From a virus (Duplodnaviria > Heunggongvirae > Uroviricota > Caudoviricetes): 16,377 nucleotides of DNA. Both the position numbers and the translations under genes were made by a program. The stretch's first letter is position 1. Each line of letters starts with the position of its first letter. The DNA is taken from the IMG/VR virus record IMGVR_UViG_2711768101_000011; one strand, given 5' to 3'. The notes under the pieces were generated by a model. That model was not told the DNA's origin. It worked only from the letters and a program-made list of their open reading frames with translations, and did no database searches. Shown piece by piece: positions 2,216 through 16,377 of the stretch.

Positions 2216-2418
2216 ATTTTCACTTTTTTAAATCCAACGACAGACGGCTGGCATTTAAGTATTGTGAAATATTATCAAATGTAATCATCATTGATTTACA
2301 AAAGATACATTTTGCCCCGAAAGGATTCATGTCAGAAACATCAAAAGATGATGTTCTATACTGGGAACCATGACAACACGGGCATCTAAAGTGAATATGG
2401 TTTGTAATATTGTCTACC

Positions 2419-2631
2419 TCAAAGCGCCACTACATGAACAGCGGCAGGACCTTTAGGTCCGTTCTCAATACCAAATTCAACTTCCTGATTCTCAGTTAAT
2501 GTTTTGAAATCGTTGCTCTGAATTGCTGAGAAATGGACAAACACATCTTTGCTGCCATCTTTCGGCGTGATGAAACCAAAACCTTTTTCAGGGTTAAACC
2601 ATTTCACTAAACCAGTCATTTTGTTAGACAT
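2419..2631 (-). CDS. cspI: CspA-family cold shock protein (70 aa)
   Basis: [38 protein letters not shown]... carries RNP1/RNP2-type cold-shock domain motifs; AAGG Shine-Dalgarno; long AT-rich leader typical of csp genes; cspI versus cspB assignment is from context. Confidence 0.85.
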
Positions 2632-2992
2632 AATTATTACCTTTTGAAGAAATTAGCCCTTGGGCAGAATGGTCCGAAAAAAATATCAGAGAGAAAAACC
2701 AACAAGGAAATCTCAAGAGGTACAAATAATAAAATTATAACAATGACTGCTTCAGATAAATTTGTAACAAACCAGAACACCATTAACGCATGATTAACCA
2801 CCCATAGCAAGGATTACTTTTGTAAAGAAAAACACAGCAATGAAAGAATAGCTTTATTTATTAATAAAACGTGTCATTCTGATTAAGACCTTTTATCTTA
2901 CCCTTAAGATTTCAGGAATTTTGGCTCATGGAAGAGTCCTTTTTATTTAAATTTTACATTCCGCGATGTAAATGTTCCGATTTAATATTACC

Positions 2993-5154: not shown

Positions 5155-6350
<1,196 letters not shown>

Positions 6351-10681: not shown

Positions 10682-10933
10682 TTATTCTTCTGCAAAAGCT
10701 GAAAAGCCTGCTTTTATTCCGATCTCTTTCAGTGCCTGTAATGAAGTGACAAACTCACCTTCGCGCAAGATAAATCCGTCTGTCACTCGACCATCCACAA
10801 AATTAATTAACGCAGCCCCATTCTTTCGCAAACACATAATGCGGTAATGACTAACAAGATTTCCATTTTCAACGCACACAGCATAGAGGCCATCTTCACA
10901 AAAAATTTTACGCAGTTCTTCGATGTTCATCAT
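10682..10933 (-). CDS. rem: Rem-like small prophage protein (83 aa)
   Basis: Length and position (between hok and ydfU) match Qin rem; GGAAGGA Shine-Dalgarno; sequence identity to rem is from imperfect memory. Confidence 0.5.
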   Translation of the reverse strand: MMNIEELRKIFCEDGLYAVCVENGNLVSHYRIMCLRKNGAALINFVDGRVTDGFILREGEFVTSLQALKEIGIKAGFSAFAEE

Positions 10934-11149: not shown

Positions 11150-11305
11150 TTACTCCTCAGGTTCGTAAGCTGTGAAGACAGCGACCTCCGTCTGGTCGGT
11201 TCGGATTCGTACCTCGCAGAGGTCTTTCCTCGTTACCAGTGCCGTCACTATGACGGTTAAACAGATGACGATCAGGGCGATTAACATCGCCTTTTGCTGC
11301 TTCAT
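11150..11305 (-). CDS. hokD: Hok-family type I toxin (HokD/RelF-like, 51 aa)
   Basis: MKQQKAMLIALIVICLTVIVTALVTRKDLCEVRIRTDQTEVAVFTAYEPEE; AAGGAG Shine-Dalgarno before the internal ATG; the ORF-track ORF extends in frame upstream to 11362. Confidence 0.8.
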   Translation of the reverse strand: MKQQKAMLIALIVICLTVIVTALVTRKDLCEVRIRTDQTEVAVFTAYEPEE

Positions 11306-11480
11306 AGCCTGCTTCTCCTTGCCTTTCGGCACGTAAGAGGCTAACCTACATGTGTCTAGCATGAAATTGGCCTCAGATTAATGTTAAGCGTCTTGCAGGA
11401 CGCGTAATGTTAACTGGGGCTTTTCTCTATCTGCCGTTGATGTTCATGCCCGAGGCAGATAGCCTCAAGCACCCGCAGCC
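11306..11480 (-). promoter_or_regulatory. hok mRNA leader region with structured elements (possible antisense/sok-equivalent region)
   Basis: Perfect 9-bp inverted repeat CTATCTGCC (11427-11435) / GGCAGATAG (11454-11462); hok loci are known to be controlled through leader structure and an antisense RNA; no sok promoter was positively identified. Confidence 0.3.
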
Positions 11481-11917: not shown

Positions 11918-12601
11918 TCATTCCTGGCCTTCTTTACCGTAGTGGAGTTGACCAATTTTGATTAGAGGGCGTCCCTGAGATTTGCGGTGTAGATTGGTAT
12001 CGCGCAGTGAATACACGCAGCCACAATATTCCTGCTGATAGAATTGTTCGCGCTTGCTGATTTCAATCATGCGGGAAGAGCCGCCCTGCTTTCGCCAGTT
12101 ATAATCCCAGTACACCATGCCCGGATAATACGCGACGGCTCGCCGTCCACAGTCGTTAACCTGCTGCATATTTTTCCAGCGTGAAATGCCCAGTGAGCTA
12201 CTGATCACACTGAAACCATTTTCAGCGGCATACAGCGCAGTCCGCTCAAAACGCATGTCAAAACACATGGTACAACGGATCCCTCGTTCAGGCTCCCATT
12301 CCATTCCTTTGGCTCGCTCAAACCAGTTGTCTGTGTCGTAATCAGCATCAATAAATGGCACGCCGTGTTGTTTAGCAAAGCGAATATTCTCATCCTTACG
12401 AATTAAATACTCTTTCTGAGGATGAATGTTCGGGTTGTAGAAAAAGATGGTGTAGTCGATTCCCGAGGCCTGAAGCGCCTCCATCACTTCACCGGAACAT
12501 GGAGCACAGCAAGAGTGCAGTAATAGTTTTTTTGCCCCGTTTGGGAGCTCCAATTTGGGGCGTTTGAAATCAGCAACAGTCATAAATGTGTTTATGAGGT
12601 T
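11918..12601 (-). CDS. DUF208 / QueH-like Fe-S protein (epoxyqueuosine-reductase-like)
   Basis: [13 protein letters not shown] motif near the N-terminus plus CTMC and YCGC Cys motifs, consistent with the DUF208 (QueH) family as I remember it; start uncertain (12601 or 12580), no clear Shine-Dalgarno. Confidence 0.6.
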
Positions 12602-13329: not shown

Positions 13330-14295
13330 TTATCCTCTGAAACCAGGCGGAATTTCTGTATCCGGTTCAGAAATATGATTAACACAACGCTGTACAGGTG
13401 AACGTCCCAGGCGGATGACCAGTTCGTCCCATTTTTCGCGGAGCTTTGACGGGCTCATGATGTTTTTTACCCAGAATGGATCTCGCTGAACCCGACCAAA
13501 CATTTCGCAAATTTGTCTGTGGCTTCTGCCATCCAGCATCCGCATTGTGCGCACGTCATTGGCCCAGGCAGTCCAGTTAGGCTCTTTTGGTCGCATGATC
13601 TCGCCATCATCACTGGCTGCCTGTTCGTAGAGACCCACGATCCGCCCCCAGATCCACTGCGCACACGCCAAATCCTCCCTGCTACCCCACTGGCGTTTTT
13701 TCGCACTAAACACAACCGCGTCGGAGTTCCGGGTTAAAAAATCCTGTTCAGTCGTCTGCGGGTCCGGTTGCGAAGCTTCCGGACGAAAAGTGTTTTTATT
13801 CTCTGTAGTAATCTCTGTTGTATTCTCTGTAAGATCATCAGGCCATTTTGACCCGATGACATTGGATCGTTTTGAACCAATGGAGCGTTTCATTTTGACC
13901 TCTTCCATCGTGTCATTTTGACCTGATGGAGCGGCGCATTTTGAACCGATGGATTCGTTCAATTTGCCACCATCTAAAAGCTCGCTCCCATAGTTGATCG
14001 TGTAGAAATTGGTCATATCGCGCTTTGATTTATTGAGCTTTTCACAACGCAAAAGCCCCAGCGTTTTCAGACTTGCAAACGCGCGCTTTAACGTTGACTC
14101 TGACCAGAATGGGAACTGTTCCAGCCATTGTTCCGTTGTGTTATAAATCCAGCGAACACCATCACATTCCATACCGGAGTTGGTATCTCTCAACCAGTAG
14201 TGCAGTTGTTGCAAAACAATGGCTTCGTTTAAGCCGATTTTCATTGCCAGCTGCGTGTTTATAACCAGTGGGCGTTCAGCAAAAAGAAGACTCAT
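13330..14295 (-). CDS. Phage replication initiation protein (replisome organizer, O-like / YdaU-like) with internal origin iterons
   Basis: N-terminus MSLLFAERPLVINTQLAMKIGLNEAIVLQQLHYWL... is replisome-organiser-like; direct DNA repeats inside the gene correspond to SIGSK peptide repeats; start set to ATG at 14295. Confidence 0.65.
   Translation of the reverse strand: MSLLFAERPLVINTQLAMKIGLNEAIVLQQLHYWLRDTNSGMECDGVRWIYNTTEQWLEQFPFWSESTLKRAFASLKTLGLLRCEKLNKSKRDMTNFYTINYGSELLDGGKLNESIGSKCAAPSGQNDTMEEVKMKRSIGSKRSNVIGSKWPDDLTENTTEITTENKNTFRPEASQPDPQTTEQDFLTRNSDAVVFSAKKRQWGSREDLACAQWIWGRIVGLYEQAASDDGEIMRPKEPNWTAWANDVRTMRMLDGRSHRQICEMFGRVQRDPFWVKNIMSPSKLREKWDELVIRLGRSPVQRCVNHISEPDTEIPPGFRG
13798..13975. 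repeat. Putative origin of replication iterons inside the O-like gene
   Basis: Five to six CATTTTGACC-like repeats at about 23-bp spacing (13844, 13869, 13891, 13914, 13937, 13960), preceded by three copies of TCTCTGT at 11-12-bp spacing (about 13798-13830). Confidence 0.6.
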
Positions 14296-14797
14296 AATTC
14301 CATCCAGCTTTTTGTTGGTATTGCTGTCGATACGCAAGCTTGAAAGCAATTGCTTTTTCTATAAGTTCGTCAGTTTCACGATCTACAACGGCAGGATCTG
14401 CAAAAAGCAGTCCGGATTCCACCACATCGCCATATTCTTTATTTAACCCGGCGATCATGTACGTAATACTTTTTCCATCACTGATCTCACGATACAACCT
14501 GAAATCACTAATCCGGATAGCCTCCATAATTGCAGGCACTAGCGCTGTGAACTTTTCACGCTTATCCCTGGTGTCGATAGCCTTCCAGCGTTCGAATATC
14601 TTCACTCGATTAACGCTAAGCGCTCGCTGATCAACCGCGCCACCTTCATATGTGACACGCTGAACATCGATGTTCGGGCGCTCTTTCAAAGCCCAGAATG
14701 CTTCAGTGATTAATATCGTCGCCTGCTCCTGTGTCATTCCTGGTCGACATATCCAGGCATCCAGAGCCTCACGAGCCTGTTCAGGAGTGATTTTCAT
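14276..14797 (-). CDS. Hypothetical early protein (173 aa) in the cII/YdaT position
   Basis: ATG at 14797 lies 17 nt inside the 3' end of dicC; its stop lies 20 nt inside the start of the O-like gene; no confident family call. Confidence 0.45.
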   Translation of the reverse strand: MKITPEQAREALDAWICRPGMTQEQATILITEAFWALKERPNIDVQRVTYEGGAVDQRALSVNRVKIFERWKAIDTRDKREKFTALVPAIMEAIRISDFRLYREISDGKSITYMIAGLNKEYGDVVESGLLFADPAVVDRETDELIEKAIAFKLAYRQQYQQKAGWNYESSFC

Positions 14798-15008
14798 TGT
14801 TCAACCGCCCCGCCCGCTTCGTCTTACGATATTCGTCATAAACTTTGGGATCATACTGAAGCTCCCCGCCAGATGCCTCCTGTAGACGCATCGCGCGACC
14901 TTCAGGAACCAGTATCCCCCAAGCAGCAACACTTGCCAGTCTCACTCCTGCGGCATTGGCAAGCTTTGTTTTGCTGCCAAAAAAAGTAATTGCGTCAACT
15001 TTAAGCAT
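14781..15008 (-). CDS. dicC: Cro-like regulator DicC
   Basis: MLKVDAITFFGSKTKLANAAGVRLAS...EGRAMRLQEASGGELQYDPKVYDEYRKTKRAGRLNNENHS is near-identical to DicC over its C-terminal half from memory; GAGGGGG Shine-Dalgarno; divergent from dicA. Confidence 0.8.
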   Translation of the reverse strand: MLKVDAITFFGSKTKLANAAGVRLASVAAWGILVPEGRAMRLQEASGGELQYDPKVYDEYRKTKRAGRLNNENHS

Positions 15009-15020
15009 CAAAGCCCCCTC

Positions 15021-15040
15021 TTGTTAGACTTTTCTAACAT
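15021..15040. promoter_or_regulatory. Operator-like palindrome in the dicC-dicA intergenic region
   Basis: TGTTAGA-CTTT-TCTAACA perfect 7-bp inverted repeat between the divergent repressor and cro-like genes. Confidence 0.45.
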
Positions 15041-15088
15041 TATTGTGCGCGGGATACCTAAGTCAAGAAAAATTAGAATTACCTAACT

Positions 15089-15496
15089 ATGGATACAAGA
15101 ACCCTAGGCCAGCGAGTTCTGGCGCGACGAAAAGAATTACGCTTAACACAACGAGAAGCTGCGCGCCTCGCTGGAGTTGCTCACGTCACAATTTCACAAT
15201 GGGAAAGAGACGAAACCCAGCCAGTCGGAAAACGATTGTTTGCTTTAGCGGATGCTCTGAAGTGCTCACCTACATGGCTAATGTTTGGTGACGAAGACAA
15301 GGCACCAGTGCCTGCACAAGAACTTCATGTGGAAACAGAGCTAACTCCCAACCACAAAGAATTGATCGAATTATTCGATGCTCTTCCATCTTCCGAGCAG
15401 GAAGCCTTGCTGTCTGAAATGCGCGCAAGAGTAGAAAACTTCAACAAACTCTTCGAAGAAATGCTTAAAGCGCGTAAAAATAAATCAATAAAATAA
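15089..15496 (+). CDS. dicA: Prophage repressor DicA (XRE-family HTH)
   Basis: 135 aa; HTH region LTQREAARLAGVAHVTISQWE and C-terminal MRARVENFNKLFEEMLKARKN closely resemble DicA from memory. Confidence 0.85.
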   Translation: MDTRTLGQRVLARRKELRLTQREAARLAGVAHVTISQWERDETQPVGKRLFALADALKCSPTWLMFGDEDKAPVPAQELHVETELTPNHKELIELFDALPSSEQEALLSEMRARVENFNKLFEEMLKARKNKSIK

Positions 15497-15531
15497 CATT
15501 CTTTTCAAGTGATTAGTTGCGCCCACTCTTT

Positions 15532-15551
15532 TTGTTAGATCAATCTAACAA
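15532..15551. promoter_or_regulatory. Second operator-like palindrome downstream of dicA, upstream of the ydfA-like gene
   Basis: TTGTTAGA-TCAA-TCTAACAA perfect 8-bp inverted repeat, same half-site as at 15021-15040; a degenerate third copy TGTTAGG-TTAT-TCTAAAT at 15570-15587. Confidence 0.45.
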
Positions 15552-15664
15552 AAAACACTTGCCTCTCATGTTAGGTTATTCTAAATTACTTTCCATCAAG
15601 ACACCGCACGGTGTTCTCAGCAAACAGTTCCGCGACCCCGGCGTTAAGGGGAAATGAGGTCAGC

Positions 15665-15817
15665 ATGGATACTATCGATCTTGGCAACAGCGAATCTCTG
15701 GTATGTGGCGTGTTCCCCAACCAGGACGGTACGTTCACCGCGATGACATATACCAAAAGCAAAACGTTTAAAACCGAATCTGGCGCGCGTTGCTGGTTAG
15801 CCAGAAACACTGACTGA
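15665..15817 (+). CDS. ydfA: YdfA-like small protein (DUF1391, about 50 aa)
   Basis: MDTIDLGNSESLVCGVFPNQDGTFTAMTYTKSKTFKTESGARCWLARNTD; GAGG Shine-Dalgarno before the internal ATG of the ORF-track ORF. Confidence 0.6.
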   Translation: MDTIDLGNSESLVCGVFPNQDGTFTAMTYTKSKTFKTESGARCWLARNTD

Positions 15818-16194
15818 TGAGGCTGACGATGGAATTTAAAGATTTACCGTCTGATGTACAGAAAACAGCAGCTCATACATTGCATTCTGTGCTGCGAGAA
15901 ATCGGGAAAGATATTGCAAGCGAGCCAGCAAAAGATCTGGCCCGGAAAATCAAGACCGCTTTCGTTGAGCTTTATAATGTTGGCACTGACTCTGAAACTG
16001 TCGAGACCAAGACCGTAAGTTCACCAATATTCTCACTTGAGCCAGGCGTATTATCAGGTGAAATATGCACCGAGATTTCCAGCGAACTGCTTCCGGTAAT
16101 ACGAGAAGCAATTTGCCGTCGCGGTTTGGATGGAAGTTACGATCATGACGTCCTGCAAGTTCTCAGGACAATGGTGACTTCACTGGGGATTTGA
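15817..16194 (+). CDS. Hypothetical protein in the ydfB/ydfC position (125 aa)
   Basis: ATG overlaps the ydfA-like stop (TGATG); an alternative start at 15829 is possible; no family recognised. Confidence 0.4.
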   Translation: MRLTMEFKDLPSDVQKTAAHTLHSVLREIGKDIASEPAKDLARKIKTAFVELYNVGTDSETVETKTVSSPIFSLEPGVLSGEICTEISSELLPVIREAICRRGLDGSYDHDVLQVLRTMVTSLGI

Positions 16195-16377
16195 TCCCTG
16201 CGTCCTCTAACCTTTTGATATAGCGGTCCTCCAAGAAGCGGTAAATTTTGTCGAAATCATCTTTCCCCTCTGGTTTATTCAGAGGATTACAGGACCCGTA
16301 AGTAGCGGCATACATTTCAACCGTTTTATCAAAAATATAAGAGACAAATTCTTCTTTATGGATTTGCCCCTATATTT
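16162..16377 (-). CDS. Partial ORF running off the right edge of the window (C-terminal 71 codons)
   Basis: Hand translation of the minus strand is open from the window edge to TGA at 16162-16164 (...DDFDKIYRFLEDRYIKRLEDAGIKSPVKSPLS); overlaps the 3' end of the plus-strand ORF, so one of the two may be spurious. Confidence 0.25.

Follow-up and report, generated by a model that had tools for sequence, protein, structure and literature searches.

The inverted repeats on both sides of the dicA-type repressor gene very probably constitute the four operators of a Qin-type (DicA/DicC) lambdoid immunity switch, which share the consensus TTGTTAG-N6-CTAACAA and are arranged in two pairs. The window, meaning the whole stretch of 16,377 bp analysed here, is a Qin-like lambdoid prophage of E. 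coli and is 100% identical to DNA of E. coli strain YJ6. Its switch is a variant copy of the one already described in E. coli K-12, and the interpretation given here restates published K-12 knowledge; the dicC-dicA-dicBp immunity region of K-12 Qin was reportedly treated by Bejar et al. in 1988 (PMID 2836697). The prophage is more complete than K-12 Qin, retaining terminase, portal, lysis and Q functions as well as the leftward early operon (YdaT, DUF977, and a 339-aa ORF), and its rightward operon is interrupted by IS2 and IS100 before dicB, as judged from the annotation. Strain 104 (L002) is collinear with the window only in part. The relevant features are the following, with positions counted in the window.

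10682 to 10933, minus strand: rem, presumed DicA antirepressor (96% identity to K-12 Rem; annotation).
14276 to 14797, minus strand: YdaT-family (CII-like) gene of the leftward operon (Pfam YdaT_toxin).
14781 to 15008, minus strand: dicC-type Cro-like gene, first in the leftward operon (86% identity to K-12 DicC; Pfam P22_Cro).
15021 to 15040, no strand: O1, strong operator, counterpart of K-12 Oc (TTGTTAGACTTTTCTAACAT, perfect palindrome, 23.7 bits).
15039 to 15066, minus strand: predicted promoter of the leftward dicC operon, PR analogue (consensus scan, 10/12 matches).
15070 to 15089, no strand: O2, weak operator, likely counterpart of K-12 Oa (AAATTAGAATTACCTAACTA, 17.4 bits).
15074 to 15079, plus strand: putative dicA -10 hexamer TAGAAT, 9 nt before the ATG (read from the sequence).
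15089 to 15496, plus strand: dicA-type repressor gene (135 aa, HTH_3; 57% identity to K-12 DicA over the full length).
15532 to 15551 (extended palindrome 15529 to 15554), no strand: O3, strong operator (TTGTTAGATCAATCTAACAA, 23.9 bits).
15559 to 15587, plus strand: putative promoter of the rightward ydfA operon, dicBp or PL analogue (K-12 alignment).
15568 to 15587, no strand: O4, weaker operator (ATGTTAGGTTATTCTAAATT, 3 mismatches, 18.2 bits).
15665 to 15817, plus strand: ydfA-type gene (DUF1391), first in the rightward operon (Pfam DUF1391, E = 4e-27; annotation).

The gene identities proposed in the preliminary description (dicA, dicC, and a ydfA-like gene) are borne out by K-12 homology and Pfam. 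The DicA-type protein matches HTH_3 (E = 1.5e-14) and shows no Peptidase_S24 match. Its N-terminal 70 amino acids correspond to the P22 C2 DNA-binding domain in the PDB (1adr, 2r1j, 3jxb; E = 1e-18) and more distantly to 434 Cro (PDB; E = 3e-7), and a C-terminal block, LPxSEQ...EMRARVxNFNKLFEE, is conserved. Helix 3 is nearly identical between the alleles, reading AHVTISQWE here and SHVSVSQWE in K-12. The leftward operon continues with genes placed like lambdoid replication genes, a statement on their position and not on homology.

The perfect inverted repeats of TGTTAGA with 4-bp spacers that had been reported in the frames 15021-15040 and 15532-15551 are exact. Sequence reading and a pattern search recovered TGTTAGACTTTTCTAACA at 15022-15039 and TGTTAGATCAATCTAACA at 15533-15550 as perfect 7-N4-7 repeats, the second of which widens to a 12+12 palindrome (TTTTTGTTAGAT/ATCTAACAAAAA, 15529-15554). 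The pattern TGTTAGA-N4-TCTAACA, with its 14 specified bases, occurs twice in the 16,377 bp, where chance would give about 1.1e-4 occurrences, and the whole window contains only six perfect 7-N4-7 palindromes whatever their sequence. The degenerate third copy is real as well (TGTTAGGTTATTCTAAAT at 15569-15586, 3 mismatches); it is not significant when taken alone, about 1.0 matches with 3 mismatches being expected by chance in the whole window and an unrelated one lying at 1149, and it is the third-best weight-matrix match (18.2 bits) at a conserved position. When the window is scanned with a weight matrix derived exclusively from sites of other loci, exactly four sites stand out, O3 (23.9 bits), O1 (23.7), O4 (18.2), and O2 (17.4), compared to 8.9 bits for the best other match and 15.1 bits for the 95th percentile of shuffle maxima. 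The three sites listed earlier stand, but a fourth one, AAATTAGAATTACCTAACTA at 15070-15089, had been overlooked. The half-site TGTTAGA is real, but its position 7 varies between A and G, and the polymorphism data delimit the constrained part as TTGTTAG-N6-CTAACAA. Outside the four sites, the window yielded no further DicA sites, whether near rem, near Q, or elsewhere, all other weight-matrix scores being at most 8.9 bits, and neither the match at 1149 nor the half-sites at 2622 and 8851 exceed chance level. The same scan revealed no third operator above 8.9 bits in either cluster, be it lambda-like or equivalent to the middle site "Om" proposed in K-12, in which respect the window differs from K-12.

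A comparison of 94 loci, of which 85 encode the recognition helix xHV[ST][IV]SQWE, nine encode other helices, and 70 carry the allele of the window, shows that the operator arms are under purifying selection and that the site sequence changes along with the recognition helix. Among the 70 loci with this allele, variable columns make up 5/55 in the arms (outermost bases only), 10/24 in the operator centres, and 66/150 in other intergenic DNA; the difference between arms and other intergenic DNA corresponds to a Fisher p = 1e-6, which overstates the evidence because related loci are not independent samples. The check for such sites in other dicA-carrying prophages, which had been suggested beforehand, found them in the same places in practically every intact homologue that has this recognition helix. 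The best motif match has 0-2 mismatches upstream in 84/85 of these loci and 0-3 mismatches downstream in 83/85, the exceptions being L007 and, for the downstream region, L011. In the nine loci with other helices, the best match has 3-7 mismatches, largely overlapping the coding-sequence control (4-7), and these loci contain palindromes of their own at the same four positions: ATTGAG-N4-CTCAAT goes with the helix SGSSISLWE and TAACT-N4-GTTAT with SSVSVFKWE. In L007 the outer operator bases deviate (CCCTTAGG) in spite of the same helix 3, and specificity is therefore not determined by helix 3 alone. It might be argued that A/T-rich intergenic DNA has produced the repeats by chance, since A/T-rich promoters are rich in short palindromes and the third copy with its 3 mismatches lies within the window-wide expectation. 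This has almost no probability in view of the two exact copies against some 1e-4 expected, the clear distance of all four sites from the weight-matrix background, and the conservation of position and arms across species together with the co-variation between classes; a chance origin was rejected as already refuted by copy statistics, weight-matrix separation, and conservation.

The arms of O1 and O3 are identical to those of the published DicA operator of K-12, Oc (TTGTTAGTCATAACTAACAA), including the A of CTAAC. This base matters, as DicA binds Oc sequence-specifically in vivo and an A-to-C change in it (CTAAC to CTCAC) abolishes binding (Yun et al., 2012; PMC3441716). Both prophages share the gene order dicC, dicA, ydfA operon (Yun et al., 2012, PMC3441716; Ragunathan et al., 2023, PMC10448788) and the arms TTGTTAG...CTAACAA, and the four sites keep their positions relative to the dicC -10 hexamer, the dicA ATG, and the rightward -35 hexamer. 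The surrounding intergenic DNA has diverged and the operator centres differ, whereas the operator arms and the -35 hexamers form islands of identity at the same positions. Rem is 96% identical between the two prophages, yet the repressor is a different allele with 57% identity. The center-to-center distances, 49 bp between O1 and O2 and 36 bp between O3 and O4, are held within 1 bp in the homologues.

The predicted dicC promoter consists of the -35 hexamer TTGACT (15066-15061), a 16-nt spacer, and the -10 hexamer AATAAT (15044-15039), and AGTCAA, its -35 hexamer read on the other strand, is kept in K-12 and all homologous loci. O1 overlaps the last 2 bp of the -10 hexamer and the predicted dicC start site, which would lie near 15032 and thus inside the operator; its arms are invariant and its centre is variable in the 70 loci. 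O2 covers the putative dicA -10 hexamer, its last base being the A of the dicA ATG, and its positional counterpart in K-12, ATTTAGCATTAGCTAACT, likewise adjoins the ATG. It shows no variation in 18 unique upstream sequences and switches with the specificity class in other loci, but its conservation is over-determined because it holds a -10-like hexamer and adjoins the start codon. A -10-like hexamer (TAGAAT, TAAGAT, or TATATT) occurs at equal distance from the ATG in every specificity class. As TAGAAT lies only 9 nt before the ATG and no Shine-Dalgarno sequence precedes the latter, the sequence suggests that the dicA mRNA is leaderless or nearly so, with a predicted start at 15086-15089, as is the case for the mRNAs of lambda cI and paaR2; a leaderless repressor mRNA has a precedent (PMC8630535).

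Downstream of dicA, the K-12 sites on either side of the -35 hexamer TTGACC have base-for-base counterparts in O3 and O4. O3 is located 7 bp upstream of the rightward -35 hexamer and aligns with K-12 ATGTTAGCTATAGCATACAA, while O4 covers the spacer and the -10 hexamer and aligns with K-12 ATGTTAGTCATGGCTAATCT. The distal dicBp site is degenerate in K-12, whereas O3 is a perfect, extended palindrome. The arms of O3 are invariant save for an indel at the outermost A (15550) and its centre is polymorphic; O4 is kept in 39 unique downstream sequences except for its outermost bases. O2 and O4 are 89% complementary, and O2 matches the reverse complement of O4 at 16/20 positions. The rightward promoter (-35 TTGCCT at 15559-15564, 17-nt spacer, -10 TAAATT at 15582-15587) aligns with K-12 TTGACC-17-TAATCT, and CTTGCC or CTTGAC is conserved across loci; transcription is predicted to start near 15594. 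It is regarded as putative because its 8/12 matches fall under the threshold of the consensus scan.

The palindrome at 15529-15554 could in principle work at the RNA level, as a hairpin causing termination or stabilisation of the dicA transcript, rather than as a protein site, since it forms an 11-bp stem of -10.2 kcal/mol (z = -6.2 versus shuffles), lies 33 nt past the dicA stop codon, and is found in a region where the terminator scan detected no other terminator between dicA and the next promoter. However, the stem is A/U-rich and followed by AAAAAACAC, a U-tract is missing on either strand, and the O3 hairpin itself was not called by the terminator scan. The K-12 counterpart ATGTTAGCTATAGCATACAA is a poor palindrome, and the hairpin is therefore not conserved in K-12. 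Moreover, within the allele the stem bases next to the loop vary irrespective of pairing and the outer arms do not change, as is typical of an operator bound by protein, and the same arms occur at O1, where a terminator is not needed. A function as RNA hairpin is thus highly improbable, and an intrinsic terminator at O3 was rejected on account of the missing U-tract, the absence of the hairpin in K-12, and a polymorphism like that of a protein site. RNAalifold gave weak support for the leader hairpin. An Rfam search yielded no match in 14900-16377, and elsewhere in the window only sok and the cspA thermoregulator.

Repression of dicC as well as of the rightward operon by DicA had been predicted in the preliminary description. 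This is supported by analogy, since it is experimental fact in K-12 (PMC3441716, PMC10448788): dicC went up about 700-fold when DicA fell to one tenth of its normal level (PMC3441716), and the dicBp promoter went up 22-fold in a dicA deletion and was derepressed 165-fold by Rem (PMC10448788). K-12 DicA also favours its own promoter in addition to repressing (PMC3441716). The strongest ChIP-seq peaks of K-12 DicC lie on either side of dicA and share the palindromic motif TT[ACT]G...C[GAT]AA (PMC11430063). For the window, DicA binding to Oc-type arms, DicA-dependent control of dicC and dicBp, occupancy of both flanks of dicA by DicC, and the function of Rem are carried over from the K-12 literature, where binding was shown for Oc. 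The DicA site at dicB is listed as low-evidence and with unknown location in the database used by Reg-Seq, so that even in K-12 the case for O3 and O4 is one of sequence logic; the Lally 2025 compendium contains no text on DicA. According to the literature, DicA does not contain an Ala-Gly cleavage bond.

The weak sites need separate consideration. In K-12, the in vivo assay gave no binding of DicA alone to the weak upstream sites Om and Oa, which was reported as data not shown (PMC3441716), and for this reason O2, and perhaps also O4, may not suffice as DicA sites by themselves; the weak sites may instead be preferred by DicC. It appears quite possible, if short of probable, that the sites, or at least O2 and O4, are mainly DicC targets or promoter elements and that DicA acts only via the two perfect sites. 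The K-12 DicC peaks and their motif would fit DicC targets, as would the resemblance of O2 and O4 to each other and the outer TTG as the chief point in which they depart from O1 and O3, while the -10-like TAGAAT within O2 and the overlap of O4 with the putative -10 TAAATT would fit promoter elements. A role as DicC targets, however, complements the operator assignment without excluding it. In lambda, every operator is common to CI and Cro, whose orders of preference are opposite. The sites of the O2 and O4 types also change together with the strong sites between specificity classes, as expected for true operators, and repression of K-12 dicBp by DicA requires a site at dicBp (PMC10448788).

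The likeness to the OR/OL logic of lambdoid immunity regions that had been proposed is supported, but each region contains two sites instead of lambda's three. Switches of the lambda/P22 type have three adjacent operators per cluster, about 23-24 bp apart from centre to centre, which allows pairwise cooperativity. As in lambda, one set of sites would be common to two repressors, divergent promoters are found at the right-hand cluster, a second cluster lies beyond the repressor gene, and the repressor shuts the lytic promoters and favours its own, as K-12 DicA does. However, the three operators per cluster, the S24 peptidase domain, and RecA cleavage of the lambda system are all missing here, and homology between the proteins is limited to the helix-turn-helix fold. 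Phage P22 immC has a C2 DNA-binding domain homologous to the N-terminal domain of DicA (about 45% identity by tblastn) and a Cro family, P22_Cro, to which the DicC protein of the window belongs. P22 operators span 18 bp in a 7-N4-7 layout whose centre is not contacted, and TGTTAGA-N4-TCTAACA has this same frame, although the half-site sequence differs. Further differences are that C2 has 216 aa and is RecA-cleavable, whereas DicA has 135 aa and another C-terminal domain, and that P22 has three adjacent sites, compared to two per region, 49 and 36 bp apart, in the window. The PaaR2/YdaS/YdaT system of CP-933P from E. coli O157:H7 (Jurenas et al., 2021; PMC8630535) shares a repressor gene at the cI/dicA position, Cro-like and YdaT (CII-like) genes divergent from it, and a repeat of one kind that recurs in the PR/PRM region and next to a PL-like promoter beyond the repressor operon; its repressor gene is leaderless, and the footprints of its two repressors overlap. 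In contrast, its repressor family and its repeat sequence GTTTAGTAA are unrelated to those found here, the palindromes are four and equally spaced, and the repressor operon contains a toxin-antitoxin pair.

In the proposed switch, a dimer of the DicA-type repressor would bind the four 20-bp sites via its P22-C2-like helix-turn-helix domain. On O1 it would cover the -10/+1 region of the dicC promoter and thereby keep the genes for the Cro-like protein, YdaT (CII-like), and the downstream genes off, leaving the overlapping weak and probably leaderless dicA promoter free or stimulated. Occupation of O2 over the dicA -10 hexamer and start, by excess DicA or more likely by DicC, would turn dicA off. 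O3 and O4 bracket the rightward -35 hexamer, with O4 also overlapping the -10 hexamer, and their occupation would exclude RNA polymerase. Binding of DicC to the same sites as DicA would result in a bistable switch of two repressors, and induction would proceed via the antirepressor Rem and not via RecA cleavage. O3 and O4 may serve a double duty, which is proposed because no intrinsic terminator lies between dicA and the rightward promoter 60-90 bp downstream: DicA bound there might be a roadblock to read-through from dicA into the toxic ydfA-dicB operon, and it might also contact O1/O2 at a distance of 511 bp, so that the repressor gene would sit within a small autoregulatory loop. We consider this rather unlikely. 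The O1-O3 distances across loci, determined by hand from offsets, are 511, 510, 518, 502, and 564 bp and are not in phase, and looping is therefore neither supported nor opposed by them. The two DicA alleles may also cross-repress co-resident Qin-like prophages. As an observation of its own, the alleles are only 57% identical, yet go with the same operator arms and the same Rem.

The finding of the palindromes is correct but ordinary, because the K-12 switch was already described, and the understanding of how such switches work is unchanged. Its main value lies in annotation, as four sites and three promoters can be placed to the base, while the RefSeq labels read "helix-turn-helix domain-containing protein" and "Cro/CI family transcriptional regulator" and leave the operators unmarked. 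The comparison of the 94 loci adds population-level evidence that the arms are constrained and the centres are not, and that the poorly documented operators at dicB-type promoters are conserved and co-vary with the recognition helix of the repressor.

The dicA-type gene of this prophage is flanked by four palindromic sites, designated O1 (15021-15040), O2 (15070-15089), O3 (15532-15551), and O4 (15568-15587). Direct reading and a pattern search identified TGTTAGACTTTTCTAACA at 15022-15039 and TGTTAGATCAATCTAACA at 15533-15550 as perfect 7-N4-7 inverted repeats with identical half-sites, which shows that the 20-bp frames of O1 and O3 in the preliminary description were exact; the O3 palindrome even lengthens to 12+12 at 15529-15554. 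The two exact matches in the window compare with about 1.1e-4 expected from base composition, and perfect 7-N4-7 palindromes, whatever their sequence, number only six in the entire 16.4 kb. The degenerate third copy proposed previously, TGTTAGGTTATTCTAAAT at 15569-15586, contains three mismatches and would by this measure alone be at chance level window-wide (about 1.0 expected, with an unrelated match at 1149), but it scores 18.2 bits with a weight matrix trained only on the sites of other loci. A repeat finder revealed a fourth site that had been overlooked, AAATTAGAATTACCTAACTA at 15070-15089, which is 89% complementary to the 15569-15586 site and ends with the A of the dicA ATG. The weight-matrix scores of O3, O1, O4, and O2 are 23.9, 23.7, 18.2, and 17.4 bits, respectively, compared to 8.9 for the next best window position and to the maxima of shuffled windows (median 9.8, 95th percentile 15.1).

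A comparison with the published DicA operators of K-12, as recommended in the preliminary description, shows that the arms of O1 and O3 are identical to those of Oc (Yun et al., PMC3441716). Both intergenic regions have diverged from K-12, and alignments show the operator arms and -35 hexamers as conserved islands at unchanged positions.

Operator sites of K-12 and the window
Site adjoining the dicC start: K-12 (Oc), TTGTTAGTCATAACTAACAA; window, TTGTTAGACTTTTCTAACAT
Site abutting the dicA ATG: K-12, ATTTAGCATTAGCTAACT; window, AATTAGAATTACCTAACT
Sites around the rightward -35: K-12, ATGTTAGCTATAGCATACAA / TTGACC / ATGTTAGTCATGGCTAATCT; window, TTGTTAGATCAATCTAACAA / TTGCCT / ATGTTAGGTTATTCTAAATT

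Binding of DicA to Oc has been demonstrated in vivo in K-12 and is lost when one A is replaced by C (CTAAC to CTCAC), while the K-12 operators Om and Oa are not bound by DicA alone (PMC3441716). Deletion of dicA raises dicBp, the counterpart of the rightward promoter, 22-fold, and Rem acts as antirepressor (PMC10448788). The Reg-Seq study, following its reference database, treats the DicA site at dicB as low-evidence and of unknown location. The strongest DicC ChIP-seq peaks in K-12 flank dicA on both sides, with a palindromic motif TT[ACT]G...C[GAT]AA (PMC11430063). The sites might also be read as operators of DicC instead of DicA, and a preference of DicC for the weak sites is indeed plausible because K-12 DicA does not bind Om or Oa alone; yet this is no true rival to DicA use, since operators common to both repressors are the rule in such switches. 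By analogy, these K-12 publications speak for the regulatory roles proposed for the window sites.

Loci encoding DicA relatives of 46-100% identity were assembled for comparison, 21 of them from one-genome-per-species contigs and the other 80 from viral contigs. The window's own allele is represented by 70 loci with 18 different sequences upstream and 39 downstream, in which substitutions are concentrated in the operator centres and in non-operator intergenic DNA. The centres found include ACTTTT, ATATTC, and ATTTTT for O1 and ATCAAT, ACCAAT, ACTAAT, and GTTGAT for O3. Of the 55 arm columns 5 vary, all of them at outermost bases, as do 10 of the 24 centre columns and 66 of the 150 in the remaining intergenic DNA (arms versus other DNA, Fisher's test p = 1e-6, only indicative because the loci are related). 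Fixed arms combined with variable centres show that the constrained unit is TTGTTAG-N6-CTAACAA. An interpretation of the O3 palindrome as an RNA hairpin or terminator is rejected, as the stem is A/U-rich (-10.2 kcal/mol) and lacks a U-tract, the hairpin is not kept in K-12, and the polymorphism follows the pattern of a protein site.

Among the 85 loci whose repressors share the recognition helix xHV[ST][IV]SQWE, the motif is present upstream with 0-2 mismatches in 84 and downstream with 0-3 mismatches in 83, the exceptions being L007 from Enterobacter hormaechei and, downstream only, L011. The best motif matches of the nine loci with other helices show 3-7 mismatches, mostly overlapping the coding-sequence control (4-7), and these loci carry different palindromes at the four unchanged positions.

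Site types associated with other recognition helices
ATTGAG-N4-CTCAAT: SGSSISLWE or SDSSISLWE
TTGTTGAG-type: SHATISLWE or SYASISLWE
TAACT-N4-GTTAT: SSVSVFKWE
CTTAAC-type: SHVTIFKWE

The weak site adjoining the ATG also varies by helix class, with the -10-like hexamer always kept. Rather than being absent from other dicA prophages, the sites belong to a conserved architecture whose sequence co-varies with the repressor, since palindromes recur at the same positions and differ by helix class. Chance as the origin of the palindromes is excluded, being contradicted by the match expectation, the weight-matrix separation, and these cross-locus motif counts.

Some loci deserve separate mention. L007 (2430-2500 and 2995-3050) has a recognition helix equal to that of the window (AHVTISQWE) and a P22-like helix 2 (QAALGKMV), but its operators, CCCTTAGG...CCTAAG and ACCTTAGG...TCTAAAT, retain the TTAG core and have lost the outer TG, so the outer bases must presumably be read by residues outside helix 3. 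In L014 and L017 (helix SSVSVFKWE), the dicA homologue is flanked up- and downstream by CTAAC-N4-GTTAG/T-type sites, which contain the window's pentamers, but in everted order and with closer spacing. Three metagenome-assembled contigs labelled Collinsella, Bacillota, and Veillonella (L008, L012, L013) carry E. coli Qin-type dicC-dicA-ydfA regions with near-identical ydfA leaders; the labels probably reflect binning contamination.

The window is identical to positions 2514806-2531182 (reverse strand) of E. coli strain YJ6 (NZ_AP023235.1) and is a Qin-like lambdoid prophage.

Genes on the two sides of the operators
Leftward of sites, 14781-15008: P22_Cro-family gene (DicC-type)
Leftward of sites: YdaT-family gene
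Leftward of sites: 339-aa ORF without Pfam match, in a position typical of lambdoid replication genes
Leftward of sites: DUF977 gene, in a position typical of lambdoid replication genes
Leftward of sites: hokD/sok, rem, Q, and lysis genes
Rightward, 15089-15496: 135-aa HTH_3 repressor gene (dicA-type)
Rightward: DUF1391 (ydfA-type) gene and 121-aa ORF
Rightward, beyond the 121-aa ORF: IS2 at 16370, then IS100, with dicB and ydfD only past both

Promoters predicted from the sequence
15066-15039, minus strand: leftward dicC promoter, TTGACT-16-AATAAT, 10/12 sigma-70 matches
15559-15564 and 15582-15587, plus strand: rightward promoter, TTGCCT, 17-nt spacer, TAAATT, aligning with K-12 TTGACC-17-TAATCT

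The start sites of all three promoters discussed here are predicted ones. The -10 of the dicC promoter reaches two bases into O1 and the putative start near 15032 lies within it, so that repressor bound to O1 would block RNA polymerase. The dicA gene lacks a Shine-Dalgarno sequence and has a TAGAAT hexamer 9 nt before the ATG, which implies a weak promoter and a probably leaderless or near-leaderless mRNA, as known for lambda cI and paaR2 (PMC8630535). Its putative start is about 55 bp from that of dicC, which makes the two promoters overlap. Relative to this putative dicA start, the centre of O1 falls near -57, and O2 spans both the start and the -10. Such a geometry would fit the K-12 situation, where DicA on Oc represses dicC and enables dicA transcription (PMC3441716), and would likewise fit a shut-off of dicA via O2, whether DicC or an excess of DicA is responsible. 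At the rightward promoter, 7 bp separate O3 from the -35, and O4 extends over the spacer and -10.

Downstream of the dicA stop codon, up to the rightward promoter (15497-15531), neither a terminator scan nor RNA folding revealed an intrinsic terminator. Possibilities for keeping dicA transcripts from the ydfA-dicB operon are a bound-repressor roadblock or Rho; repressor on O3/O4 might also halt read-through, or loop to O1/O2 511 bp away. The spacings between O1 and O3 at other loci share no helical phase. In the rightward operon, the 5' leader (15596-15660) is conserved far above the adjacent promoter; it carries CTCAG...GTTC[CT]G[CA] and, after that, a short hairpin. Its stem shows compensated changes among homologous loci (CCCC/GGGG in the window, CCCTG/CAGGG in L005, GCC/GGC in L007, GCCG/CGGC in L017, and CCCG/CGGG in L011), of which RNAalifold recovered only 3 pairs, 2 with double changes. 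The leader has no Rfam match and looks like a possible nutL/boxB-type or other antitermination element.

At and beyond the right edge of the window (16370-16377; L104, 22370-25550), IS2 followed by IS100 parts the ydfA-type gene and 121-aa ORF from dicB and ydfD, so that in YJ6 the rightward promoter controlled by the operators has probably lost its link to the cell-division inhibitor. Between hokD and the DUF977 gene, which lies downstream of the presumed replication module, a cargo slot carries an epoxyqueuosine reductase (QueH) gene (11918-12583, minus strand); the prophage of strain 104, which is similar in other respects, has in this slot (L002, 16630-17655) a gene for a RelA/SpoT-domain protein, possibly a toxic alarmone synthetase or defence gene. 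Gathering-level Rfam matches identify a sok antisense RNA (11300-11474, minus strand) adjoining hokD (11150-11305) and a cspA-type thermoregulator 5' UTR (2392-2776, minus strand) ahead of cspI. The AraC/HTH gene that separates a YbgA-family gene from the lysis genes is broken and contains ISKpn26 (IS5-like; 5302-6282, minus strand).

The encoded proteins are 57% (repressor), 86% (Cro-like protein), and 96% (Rem; gene at 10682-10933, minus strand) identical to DicA, DicC, and Rem of K-12, respectively, and a PDB comparison matches the first 70 residues of the repressor with the DNA-binding domain of P22 C2 (E = 1e-18). The strong conservation of Rem versus that of its presumed target repressor suggests that Rem may act on the conserved C-terminal part of DicA. 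As judged from the features accessible in the sequence, all of which agree, the locus is a Qin-type DicA/DicC immunity region. The previously drawn likeness to OR/OL holds for the lambda/P22-like logic, but not for the narrower class: lambda and P22 have three sites per cluster and an S24 cleavage domain in the repressor, whereas the window has two per cluster, spaced 49 and 36 bp, and no such domain. Another analogue that has been worked out is the PaaR2/YdaS/YdaT switch of CP-933P (PMC8630535). Operator repeats flanking dicA, the lambda-like logic, and TTGTTAG...CTAACAA arms have already been published for K-12 (Bejar 1988, as quoted in a later paper; Yun 2012, PMC3441716; 2024 DicC ChIP-seq preprint, PMC11430063). 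What is specific to the window is the allele, with its repressor of 57% identity, its perfect palindromes at O1 and O3, and its different operator centres.
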